Positions 21,001 to 24,000 of a stretch of DNA of 42,877 nucleotides are shown here, piece after piece. The position numbers were made by a program. Each line of letters begins with the position of its first letter. Positions within the stretch are counted from its first letter, which is position 1. The DNA comes from a virus (taxonomy: Duplodnaviria; Heunggongvirae; Uroviricota; Caudoviricetes). Location: the IMG/VR virus record IMGVR_UViG_2671181012_000022. One strand, given 5' to 3'.

Positions 21001-24000
21001 TCTGCGGTGTTTTTCTACAAAAATAAGTAAATTATGTCAACTATCACGGTGAGAAACCATGACATTTCTGAACCAGTTAATGCTGTACTTCTGTACGGCG
21101 GTCTGTGTGCTGTATCTTCTTTCGGGTGGGTACAGGGCAGTGCGCGATTTCTGGCGCAGGCAGATTGATAAAAGGGCCGCTGAGAAAATCAGCGCCAGTC
21201 AGTCAGCCGGAAGCAAACCCGAAGAGCCCATTACTCCTTAATAACCCCTTTCAGCGAGAAAATCCTATGTCAGAAGTAAAACCCCTGGTCACTGCTGAAG
21301 CAGTGAAGGAAGTCCTGCGCTCTGAAGAAGTCCTGAGCGCACTGAAACAGAAACTCCGCCAGAACCTTGAGTCGCGTCTTGATGCAGAAGTGGATGCCAT
21401 TCTGGATGAACTGCTGGGCGCACCGGCTGTTCCGGAGCCGGAAGGCATTGCGGGTGACGGGAGTGCTTCAGATGGCGGTGAACCCACACCCGACAGCGAC
21501 ATGATGATGTAAGCATGCGCAAGGGACCATCGGTGTGTGCCGGTGGTCTTTATATTGTTGTGAGCTTCCGGATTGCGGGAGACGGGGTATGTACCAGATG
21601 GAAAAAATCACAACAGGTGTGTCATACACCACGTCAGCGGTGGGAACGGGCTACTGGTTCCTGCAGTTGCTGGACAGGGTTTCCCCGTCTCAGTGGGCGG
21701 CAATAGGCGTGCTGGGGAGTCTGCTGTTTGGTCTGCTGACGTACCTGACGAACCTGTATTTCAAGATTAAAGAAGACCGTCGTAAGGCGGCGCGGGGAGA
21801 GTAGACGATGAACCATGAAGAAATGAATCAGCGCTTCAGTCGTCTGGAAAATGAAATTGCTGAACTGAATAAAAAACTGTCGGTGCTGATGCCTTCTGAA
21901 GATGCAAACAAACGCTGCGATGAGCAGTTTGCGGCGTTTTACGATGATTGCATCAAAATTGCTCGCAGGACCTTTGCGAAGATTTTGCAGGAAAAGTTTT
22001 TACCGGCCGCATTGTCAGAAAAGTACTCCATTACGGTTAAAAGTGCCGGAGAGGAAGGCAATAAGCGTTATTTTATTGCGTCTGCACCGGATAAAGACCA
22101 GGAATGGGAGTGTAACCGGCCATCCTTTGTTGTATCCGGTGATGACGGGAAAATCACCATATCAGAAAATGGAAAAGTAACACCGCCATCGCACCAGCAC
22201 AGTGAGACGCTCATTGAATTTGCCATTGATTACCTGAAGAACAATAAAAAACAGGGGCTGATGAAGCGCATTGGTCGCTGCATGGGATATCTGCAGCTGG
22301 CGGCAGAGATTGAAGCACTTGCCAGTGGTGCAGACAGGGATGCTGCGGTGCGGGAGGGTCTTCTTTGTGATTTCAATACGCCACCCTTTAAGAAAGAGCC
22401 TGATGGCTGGATCCAGCCGGGGCTGACTTATCTCAAATGGCGCATATAGTAAAAGAGAAAACAATTGAGGTGAAAAATGAAAAAATACGATATGACAGTT
22501 AAATCATTCCACATGGGGGATAAAAATGTTGTCGTTGTCCTTGGTATATATAATTATCAGGTTCCATCAATGCTGTTGTTCAATATTGAAATAGATATTG
22601 AACGACGGGAAGATGCTACCATTCCGTTTTATGAGGCGCTGGCTTTAAAAAAAGCAGCCTCGCTAATTCATGAAATTTCTGATGATTTAGCAGTGGCTGC
22701 TTAGATTTTTATTTCAAAAATGGCTCAGGACTGGTATTGCCAAACATGGGTCTTACCGGTGGTTGCATGAGGGTATTGATGGCGACTTTAATCTCTGGTT
22801 TACCTGAGGTTGTGATTTTGCTCAGTTCGCTATGTAACCTGGTTTTAAGCTCATCACTGAATTTCTTGTCTCCACTTTGCTGATCCAGAATGTCAACGAT
22901 GTTGTAGAACAGGAAATTGGCTGCGGTATTTATAGCTATGTTTTCGCGCTGAAGCCCCTGAATTAGTTGAAAAAGTTCATGGTTTGATATTTCCATTAAG
23001 TTCTCCTTATTGAGGTTATCAGCCATCCCTCTTTTGTTACATGTGCCAGTGCCCACCACTGGCAGGCTGAAGACTTAACATATCCAGGGATTCGGAACCG
23101 ATAAATCCTGATAAATATCCATGAACACCAAAATCAAATACGGCCTGTCGGCTGCCGTTCTGGCGCTGATTGCCGCAGGTGCGCCTGCGCCTGAAATCCT
23201 CGACCAGTTTCTTGACGAAAAAGAAGGTAACCACACCACGGCATACCGTGATGGTGCGGGTATCTGGACCATCTGCCGAGGTGCCACCCGGGTGGATGGT
23301 AAGCCTGTGATTCCTGGCATGACGCTGTCGAAGGGGAAATGCGACCAGGTTAACGCCATTGAGCGTGATAAAGCGCTGGCATGGGTGGAGAAAAACATCA
23401 GAGTGCCACTGACCGAACCCCAGAAAGCGGGGATCGCGTCATTCTGTCCTTACAACATTGGCCCCGGTAAGTGTTTCCCGTCGACGTTTTATAAACGAAT
23501 TAATGCAGGCGATCGCAGGGGAGCGTGTGAAGCGATTCGCTGGTGGATTAAGGACGGTGGCAGAGACTGCCGTATCCGCTCAAATAATTGTTATGGTCAG
23601 GTATCCCGTCGTGACCAGGAGAGCGCGCTGGCGTGCTGGGGTATCGACAGATAAGCAGAATATTTTGCTGAAAAATGACGTTGACTAACGCGGACGGATA
23701 ACACGAAATCCTGCGAACTGGCAAAACCTAAGTGAATAAAAGTAAAAACCCCGTTTGTTGGCAGCAAGCGGGGTTTTGTGTTTCTGACCTTGGATAAGGC
23801 AAGGGAGAACATGGAAAAGTATAAACGAATTCTGTTGAGGTTGACTATGAAAAACGGCCTTGAACTGAAAGCGCCAGAGTAACTGATGACATCAGCAGAG
23901 CGCTGGCTTTTGCTATTAAGTGGGTGGCGGTTGGTATCGCTGTGTCTCCGATACTGTATGGGCTGGCAAAACTGGTCATTGCGTTGAAATCGTGAAGGGA

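Follow-up and report, generated by a model that had tools for sequence, protein, structure and literature searches.

What are three genes doing between the pinholin and endolysin genes of a phage lysis cassette? We address this question for IMG/VR virus record IMGVR_UViG_2671181012_000022, a Caudoviricetes sequence of 42,877 nucleotides (the window). In it, three genes, here called g1, g2, and g3, separate an S21-type pinholin gene (S) from a signal-arrest-release (SAR) endolysin gene (R). An original prediction had described the three open reading frames (ORFs) as acquired cargo at a late-expressed site, possibly a defense, anti-defense, or lysis-timing module. We conclude with moderate confidence that the segment is composite accessory cargo and not a lysis module, made up of a late gene, g1, and a mobile moron/reverse-moron cassette, g2–g3. 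The reverse gene of this cassette follows a leader predicted to be structured RNA, and the same leader stands before many unrelated small ORFs in other phages.

Three Constrained Genes between S and R

The source is a complete lambdoid E. coli prophage, Shiga toxin (Stx) phage-like but stx-negative, which extends from int to tail gene L. Positions 21400–23700, as queried, are 100% identical to a region of E. coli FHI_NMBU_11. The holin–endolysin region sits in the late operon, 3′ of Q, three tRNAs, a nanS-p-type esterase gene, and genes for DUF1378 and DUF826 proteins. The left flank of the slot is S (21589–21804, + strand), whose product matches PF04971 (E = 1.1e-32), has the dual start M1/M4 (MYQM), and is labeled a class II holin by RefSeq. 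The right flank is R (23121–23654, + strand; PF00959, E = 2.4e-24), whose product has a hydrophobic, MNTK-type N-terminus (19-residue Kyte–Doolittle score of 1.74); no Shine–Dalgarno (SD) sequence is recognizable for R at 23100–23125. The type of R N-terminus tracks the slot, in that MNTK-type proteins accompany an occupied S–R junction and MSRK-type proteins a contiguous one.

The ORF map places g1 (213 residues) at 21808–22449 and g2 (75 residues; SD GAGGTGA) at 22477–22704, both on the + strand, and g3 (95 residues; SD AAGGAG) at 22709–22996 on the − strand. This agrees with the original prediction of three ORFs in the slot, and RefSeq annotates all three in a 100% identical E. coli prophage. 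The predicted end coordinate, 23059, had to be revised, since it corresponds to a GTG-extended 116-residue reading of g3. The conserved start giving 95 residues is favored by the AAGGAG SD and by the lengths of all relatives (93–110 residues). Moreover, in one relative of ~58% identity (L009) the upstream ATG opens a 9-codon ORF that ends in TGA just before the g3 ATG.

All three are real genes under purifying selection. The ratio of nonsynonymous to synonymous substitution rates (dN/dS, Nei–Gojobori) is 0.16 for g1 with Stx2_12E129 as comparator, and 0.28 and 0.19 for g2 and g3, respectively, against a relative of ~60% identity, a looser constraint than that on S (0.09) and R (0.035). No transmembrane segment was found in g1, g2, or g3 (maximum 19-residue Kyte–Doolittle scores of 0.74, 1.37, and 1.12, compared with 1.70 for S and the value given above for R). 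None of the three proteins thus has the transmembrane segment, SAR segment, or lipoprotein signal of a holin, antiholin, or spanin. Profile searches of PDB sequences returned no solved relative of g1 or g3 below E = 0.1, and NCBIfam matches for the three proteins were noise only.

A Swapped Cassette That Recurs in Tail Operons

The prediction that the last two genes lie in lower-GC DNA is borne out. The GC fraction is 0.36 in g2 and 0.41 in g3, compared with 0.55 in both S and R, while g1 is intermediate (0.47); for positions 22450–23044 taken together it is 0.38. Comparison with related prophages, which had been proposed as a way of defining insertion boundaries, located them. In blastn alignments with Stx2_12E129, phage 86, and Stx2_499, homology stops at 22448, in the g1 stop codon, and resumes at 23045, which makes the low-GC block 22449–23044 a swapped cassette. 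DNA homology with Salmonella phage ES18 covers window positions 22474–23089 and likewise delimits the cassette.

The S–R spacing is 4 nt in VT2-Sakai and ~1.3 kb in the window. The earlier statement that S and R are normally adjacent describes VT2-Sakai correctly but was too strong, as the order in K-12 Qin is essQ-ydfR-rrrQ and several Stx phages also fill the slot. In S21-type cassettes, the S–R junction is a site of cassette exchange whose boundaries are defined.

The convergent g2–g3 pair, with 4 nt between its stop codons, recurs in other loci. It occupies the S–R slot of E. albertii/E. coli lambda-like prophages, where the proteins are 58–60% identical to those of the window. Together with the leader described below, it is also found at the junction of tail genes M and L in three Salmonella phages, ES18, Oslo, and 29485 (51–55% identity), and it adjoins the tape-measure gene of a Citrobacter prophage. 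The swapped low-GC block and the recurrence of the g2–g3–leader unit in tail operons uphold the proposal of acquired cargo at a late-expressed site.

Two side observations come from elsewhere in the window. An ompC porin paralogue (41442–42596, + strand) lies between tail genes M (40902–41243) and L (from 42806), the junction at which ES18 carries gp24/gp25; the leader pattern is absent from the M–L junction of the window. In addition, a YlcI/YnfO-family small antisense gene (26599–26799, − strand), 3′ of the lysis genes and 5′ of the HNH endonuclease and terminase genes, is possibly another reverse-oriented moron that lacks the leader described here.

Terminator, Promoter, and Structured Leader of g3

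An intrinsic terminator of g3 lies at 22647–22702 (− strand), where a hairpin (AAGCAGCC...GGCTGC) followed by T7 runs antisense within the final codons of g2 and limits the antisense overlap to ~60 nt of that gene. The hairpin and the U-run after the stop codon are found with compensatory stem changes at five loci, namely, the window, L009, ES18, 29485, and Citrobacter. A Serratia prophage (L019) that carries a g3 homologue alone has a canonical terminator in place of the embedded one, and equivalent terminators are annotated in the ES18 and HK97 records. Neither g1 nor g2 has its own terminator in the window.

The g3 protein matches phrog_10490 (E = 1e-49) and is 55% identical to ES18 gp25. 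An exhaustive profile search of 1.84 billion proteins yielded 7 representatives of its family, all stand-alone proteins of 93–110 residues, a length that is kept across 27–60% identity; a locus search with a narrower g3 alignment led to two loci. The C-terminal tail is conserved (NxLMQPPVRxxFGNxxPEPFLK). An AlphaFold2 model is all-helical, with a predicted local distance difference test (pLDDT) score of 78, and a fold search from this model gave no informative match.

Upstream of g3, ~150 nt are conserved, even before the unrelated 104-residue reverse gene of phage 86 and 12E129. This region contains a putative σ70 promoter (23077–23112, − strand) with a −35 element TTTATC (23105–23100), a 17-nt spacer, and a −10 element TATGTT (23082–23077), and it is flanked by a conserved ATCAGGR...CCCTGG dyad. 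Among the matches listed from the IMG/VR scans described below, 79 unique upstream sequences share the promoter block ATCAGGGTGTTGCT-N9-AACCCTGGTTAAGGT-N6-TCAGCC; their consensus elements are TTGCTT...TAAGGT, and A2 and T6 of the −10 element are invariant. On the opposite strand, the sequence where translation of R is initiated shares DNA with the putative promoter region, and the R start codon falls inside the latter.

The predicted transcript begins with a leader at 22997–23070 (− strand), which scores 73.5 bits (E = 3e-18) with a covariance model built from our first alignment. Its 5′ UCAGCC (23070–23065) forms one arm of a potential helix, P1. It is followed by the P2 hairpin (arms 23064–23057 and 23051–23044) and by P3, in which GAGG (23031–23028) pairs with CCUC (23015–23012). 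The 12-nt P3 loop contains GGCUGA (23024–23019), which is complementary to the 5′ UCAGCC, and the g3 SD lies at 23008–23003.

We assessed each helix on sequences whose search pattern left that helix free (set A6 for P3 and set A7 for P2). In P3, comprising GAGG/CCUC and flanking pairs, five of six pairs show two-sided changes. In P2 this holds for seven of eight pairs, and 96% of cells are paired. None of 500 shuffles reached the covariation score in either set, and slid-partner controls gave 0.02–0.10 compared with 0.31 for the P2 set. The pair formed by P2 columns 12 and 29 is U·G in 59 of 74 sequences. Frequent U·G and G·U wobbles fit only the g3-sense strand. Minimum free energy folding picks P1 together with P2; of three leaders folded, two have z scores between −2.4 and −2.7, the window being at −2.7. 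Both arms of P1 (UCAGCC/GGCUGA) are almost invariant, and each search pattern fixes one of them, so covariation is uninformative for this helix; even the leaders without P2 retain UCAGCC. Covariation in P2 and P3 thus indicates that the g3 leader is a structured RNA. P1 and P3 cross, and the RNA may therefore be a pseudoknot or else exist as two alternative conformers.

The same covariance model scores 92.5 bits in HK022, 65.5 in HK97, 53.1 in phage 86, and 41.1 in the Serratia prophage, and it has no hit in K-12 Qin (L006) or VT2-Sakai. A search of positions 21400–23800 against Rfam gave nothing relevant at E ≤ 1. A leader subclass without P2 (L152, L156, L162, L170, L178, L185, and L216; 27–41 bits) keeps the 5′ UCAGCC, a −10-like TAAGGT, and P3 with its GGCUGA loop.

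Genes Downstream of the Leader in Other Phages

An exact-pattern scan of IMG/VR for the leader core TCAGCC-N-G-N-CAGTGG...CACTGGC identified at least 120 contigs, and another scan that used the opposite end as its anchor (GGATGGCTGATTACCTC) added at least 55 further unique variants. The counts that follow are for the matches listed. An ORF of at least 50 codons starts within 130 nt downstream of 123 of 131 elements. These ORFs encode 71 unique proteins, mostly of 62–105 residues, which fall into at least 21 clusters unrelated by BLAST. For the 13 largest clusters, the representatives match nothing in Pfam except in two cases, an aspartyl-protease-like protein and a DUF1883 protein, and every PHROG hit of a representative is to a family of unknown function. 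We also looked for a superfamily common to the cargo clusters, or common to DUF1327 and the β/α partner proteins; hhalign links none of them above ~73% probability, and we propose neither.

The gene behind the promoter is a lysozyme gene for 22 elements, tail gene L for 20, another tail gene for 17, and tail gene M for 4; for 32 elements it encodes a Pfam-negative protein of 195–225 residues. In some cassettes with this last neighbor, the convergent partner is a GT2-like gene. Convergent partners are diverse overall, and cargo families other than that of g3 mix freely with several partner families. One IMG/VR contig (L066) has two leader copies, at 311–392 and 4435–4516, 4.1 kb apart, so one phage can hold more than one such cassette. 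As far as we could determine, this leader before hypervariable small ORFs has not been described so far, and we consider it the most useful product of the analysis.

g2, DUF1327 Proteins, and RNase E

The original prediction recognized no motif in the three proteins, which does not hold for two of them. Residues 2–71 of g2 match DUF1327 (PF07041; E = 1.3e-8, 35.4 bits against a gathering cutoff of 25), a family that g1 and g3 do not match. The g2 product is a stand-alone DUF1327 (YdfR-family) domain, and g2 is the forward, or moron, gene of the cassette. With the core of ES18 gp24, the protein shares 51% identity.

The K-12 member of this family offers a biochemical lead. In two-hybrid and pull-down experiments, YdfR residues 1–72 bind both RNase E, at its catalytic N-terminal half, and RNase G, and YdfR copurifies with RNA (PMC13232886). 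This is exactly the domain to which g2 corresponds; that g2 itself binds RNase E is a hypothesis only.

g1 and the Long YdfR Family

The other motif missed earlier lies in g1, which has no Pfam match but aligns to the C-terminal part of phrog_1085 (E = 1.2e-101, profile positions 117–296); g2 hits positions 3–72 of the same profile. The long YdfR family is strongly mosaic, with a DUF1327 N-terminal domain, a linker, a coiled coil, a variable middle, and a conserved C-terminal region of ~75 residues (MKRIGRCMGYLQ...PFKK.P..W.QPGLTYLKGRI). The g1 protein has the coiled-coil N-terminus, the variable middle, and the conserved C-terminal region and lacks the DUF1327 domain; it is best described from its sequence as a long YdfR-family version minus that domain. 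Its homologues form 136 clusters, all from E. coli or Shigella, and many carry an N-terminal PF07041 fusion. The N-terminus of g1 bears a visual resemblance to the MTLEQRVEALE N-termini of forward genes in tail cassettes; phmmer gave no support for a relationship, and we rejected it.

YdfR-family relatives of 161, 213, 268, or 329 residues occupy the S–R slot of Stx phages. Among 5,426 complete E. coli genomes, 1,037 carry g1-related DNA, and in 79 of these it extends over at least 80% of g1; the exact g1–g2–g3 arrangement is rare (16 genomes). The E. albertii/E. coli lineage whose g2–g3 pair is ~60% identical to that of the window (L008–L012) carries a frameshifted g1 homologue, and the frameshift falls inside the conserved C-terminal region (L009 3495–4218; likewise in L008 and L010–L012).

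The start of g1 just past the holin stop codon was correctly predicted. The junction (21795–21810, + strand) reads GGGGAGAG-TAG-ACG-ATG, with the ATG 3 nt after the TAG and the SD just upstream. Comparison of the window (...GGGGAGAGTAGACGATGAAC) with VT2-Sakai (...GGGGAGAGTAAGCTGATGAGC) reveals that the same SD and spacing serve R in the contiguous cassette, and g1 therefore holds the translationally coupled position of R.

What the Segment May Do

These results lead us to the following model. The late gene g1 sits next to the holin gene, in the coupled position taken by R where cassettes are contiguous, and would therefore be translated along with the holin from the Q-antiterminated late transcript. 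The g2 gene is co-oriented with the late operon and would also be made late. With its σ70-like promoter, structured leader (possibly a pseudoknot), strong SD, and terminator inside g2, g3 would act as an autonomous antisense unit. We infer that host RNA polymerase reads it while the prophage is repressed, immediately upon infection, or at both times, and that after induction Q-modified convergent late transcription through the promoter may silence it. It is typical of genes that run antisense to lytic operons to be accessory and to have transcription of their own (PMC7067206). The three proteins are most likely soluble and cytoplasmic, and our best guess at their role is modulation of the host or of competing phages, by lysogenic conversion, defense, or counter-defense.

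Several observations weigh against this model. Database searches matched no cargo or partner family to a characterized protein, and for that reason the designation of these genes as conflict cargo is an argument from context. A generic consensus promoter scan of the window did not call the putative g3 promoter, and its −35 element is weak. The AlphaFold2 model of g1 is poor (pLDDT 50, from a 30-sequence alignment), and the only location found for g1 is the S–R slot; both leave a lysis-related role for g1 as a candidate. Overproduction of YdfR barely altered the transcriptome (PMC13232886). Finally, BLASTP detects no similarity between g2 and K-12 YdfR; as PF07041 is their sole link, the RNase E lead transfers weakly to g2.

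A defense or anti-defense role, as in the original prediction, is a candidate reading from context. A search of PADLOC-DB 2.0 gave a single hit for the three proteins, PDC-S51 with g3 (21.9 bits over 60 helical residues). The exhaustive search found no g3 relatives of ~376 residues, and we judged the hit spurious. The prediction was also said to fail if the three genes proved to be a conserved part of a described lysis cassette with known roles. Half of this applies, in that the genes recur in such cassettes and had been annotated there before, although with no known role.

Regulation of lysis is the alternative that survives best, although we consider it unlikely. Here g1, and perhaps g2, would be cytoplasmic modulators of the pinholin/SAR-endolysin pathway, affecting timing or endolysin release, made stoichiometrically with the holin. 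The use by g1 of an SD that otherwise serves R, immediately after the S stop codon, is consistent with this idea, as are the recurrence of YdfR-family genes in the same slot of K-12 Qin and several Stx phages and the restriction of g1-like C-terminal domains to the S–R slots of E. coli prophages. An envelope-integrity screen that implicated ydfR, cited in PMC13232886, points the same way. Against it, all three proteins lack a transmembrane or SAR segment, many functional S21–R21 cassettes are contiguous (933W-like, Sakai, and P13374), and the lineage with the frameshifted g1 homologue retains intact S, g2, g3, R, and Rz. For g2 and g3, the absence of membrane segments and the occurrence of the cassette in tail operons make a lysis-timing role unlikely; of the lysis-timing module originally proposed, only g1 remains a candidate.

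Less probable still is a two-component system in which g2 and g3 would be cognate partners, for example a toxin–antitoxin, abortive infection, or immunity pair, with their ratio set by convergent overlapping transcripts. The conserved 4-nt gap does persist at ~55–60% amino acid identity, and, among the matches listed, all 17 instances of g3-type cargo, spread over four flanking contexts, have a g2-type DUF1327 partner. The placement of the g3 terminator inside g2 also ties the genes together, but an embedded terminator suffices for co-inheritance; it would explain the pairing as well as a functional link would. Solo occurrences argue against a cognate pair. The Serratia prophage has g3 without a DUF1327 partner, one E. 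coli lineage (L014) has kept g1-like and g2-like genes and lost g3 and the leader, and ydfR is solo in K-12; g2 and g3 are therefore not mutually dependent. The free combination of other leader-linked cargo families with several partners argues similarly. Beyond the weak PADLOC hit, neither Pfam nor NCBIfam searches gave a toxin-like or other supporting match.

Least probable of all, a g3 unit acting mainly as RNA, with its transcript or convergent transcription antagonizing the late mRNA of its own or a superinfecting phage and the ORF secondary, is suggested by the antisense orientation, the conserved structured 5′ RNA, and the precedent of STnc6030 of BTP1, an antisense RNA in a structural operon that confers superinfection exclusion (PMC7067206), but it fits poorly with the dN/dS, conserved length and C-terminal peptide, and strong SD of g3, with the short, terminator-set overlap with g2, and with a leader that is antisense to intergenic DNA only.

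The model of accessory cargo has a bolder extension, which we advance tentatively and regard as doubtful. The g3 leader may define a widespread expression platform in enterobacterial temperate siphophages, and the DUF1327 proteins often encoded alongside might act on it via RNase E. Such a platform would comprise the σ70-like promoter and a ~75-nt leader (5′ UCAGCC, P2, and P3 with a loop able to pair with the 5′ end). It would be placed antisense in late operons, at S/R, M/L, I/J, and tape-measure-proximal junctions, and at a glycosyltransferase-like locus, where it would drive hypervariable small proteins (at least 21 BLAST-unrelated families, nearly all without a Pfam or PHROG function). 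A conserved platform combined with hypervariable small cargo is a signature typical of counter-defense or defense effectors.

If DUF1327 proteins do act on the leader, the interaction of K-12 YdfR with RNase E would be tied to a natural target, and the proposal offers a testable link between these proteins, RNase E, and a specific RNA. The leader itself is a search handle that gathers dozens of unrelated, uncharacterized small phage proteins, probably expressed independently of the late operon. The resulting collection is a compact candidate list of prophage-encoded effectors.

Other Features of the Prophage

The R–Rz junction (23811–25548) is also interrupted. It contains a frameshifted small ORF (23811–23995), a 43-residue ORF (24010–24141), and a DNA methyltransferase gene (24149–25084) whose end overlaps the start of Rz (25081); in VT2-Sakai and phage 86, this junction holds ant. 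No stx genes are present between the three tRNAs (16677–16926) and the nanS-p-type SASA esterase gene (18971–20929). This region contains instead a gene for an S-adenosylmethionine-dependent DNA methyltransferase (16952–17947) and tandem STnc100 matches (18048–18254 and 18534–18744). The nin region includes a hokD/sok type I toxin–antitoxin locus (12145–12470). RefSeq annotates the portal gene as frameshifted (31930–34676), and the prophage may thus be defective.

Comparison with Known Systems

Morons are defined as extra DNA of deviant GC content with its own promoter and terminator, expressed from a repressed prophage (Juhala et al. 2000, as restated in PMC3594210). The g2–g3 cassette is extra DNA between genes that are adjacent in relatives, its GC content deviates from that of S and R as given above, and g3 has its own terminator. 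As a candidate promoter it has the conserved −35/−10-like block found in the 79 unique sequences, at the right distance from the leader, which the consensus scan did not call.

The closest parallels in organization are HK97 and HK022. In HK97, the leader element precedes gp23 (annotated "reverse moron product"), which is convergent with gp22 ("moron product") between tail genes I and J. HK022 gp22/gp23 have an HK97-like layout and encode proteins unrelated to those of HK97. The moron annotations in these records reportedly stem from Juhala et al. in 2000. Both phages share with the window convergent forward and reverse genes, a reverse-gene terminator inside the forward gene, and the same promoter–leader element. 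They differ in that their cassettes lie in the tail operon and not at the S–R junction of the lysis cassette, and their gp22/gp23 are unrelated to g2/g3 by BLAST (HK97 gp23 belongs to cargo cluster 3 and gp22 to another partner cluster).

True homologues of g2 and g3 are ES18 gp24/gp25 ("possible moron; function unknown"), which share the 4-nt tail-to-tail gap, the embedded terminator, the leader, and the promoter. Unlike the window pair, they are flanked by tail genes M and L, with a late-strand terminator after them, and the annotation of gp24 includes 11 additional N-terminal codons. The promoter in the window, by contrast, abuts the R start codon. The tail-operon location common to HK97, HK022, and ES18 is not found here, and we treat location as variable and not as defining.

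In the lysis cassettes of other phages, the same slot is filled differently. K-12 Qin (essQ-ydfR-rrrQ) has ydfR, of the same Pfam family as g2, starting 4 nt after essQ, but this is a single 103-residue gene that overlaps rrrQ, with no reverse gene and no leader. The long YdfR proteins of Stx phages (phage 86 gp05, 268 residues; Stx2_95, 329 residues) are 58–89% identical to g1 over shared modules. Their genes, too, lie in the S–R slot, and behind them comes a reverse gene that carries the leader found in the window; in phage 86 and 12E129, this reverse gene belongs to a 104-residue family unrelated to g3. In the window, unlike in these proteins, DUF1327 is encoded separately downstream, as g2.

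Anti-CRISPR-type loci, which combine a conserved regulatory element with hypervariable small genes inside a late operon, provide an analogy. The resemblance lies in a conserved promoter/leader before many unrelated small soluble ORFs at fixed structural-operon junctions; the differences are the antisense orientation, the lack of an Aca-like helix-turn-helix gene, and the lack of a cargo match to a known anti-defense protein. In the literature, we found no functional studies of DUF1327, of reverse morons, or of the HK97 gp22/gp23 class, save the YdfR–RNase E lead. The g1–g3 families are already catalogued in Pfam and PHROG, and the cassette type was annotated more than 20 years ago. The locus adds to the known cases of morons in lambdoid late operons, with homologues already flagged in HK97, HK022, and ES18, and by its organization the g2/g3 cassette belongs to the class that drew attention when the term moron was introduced.

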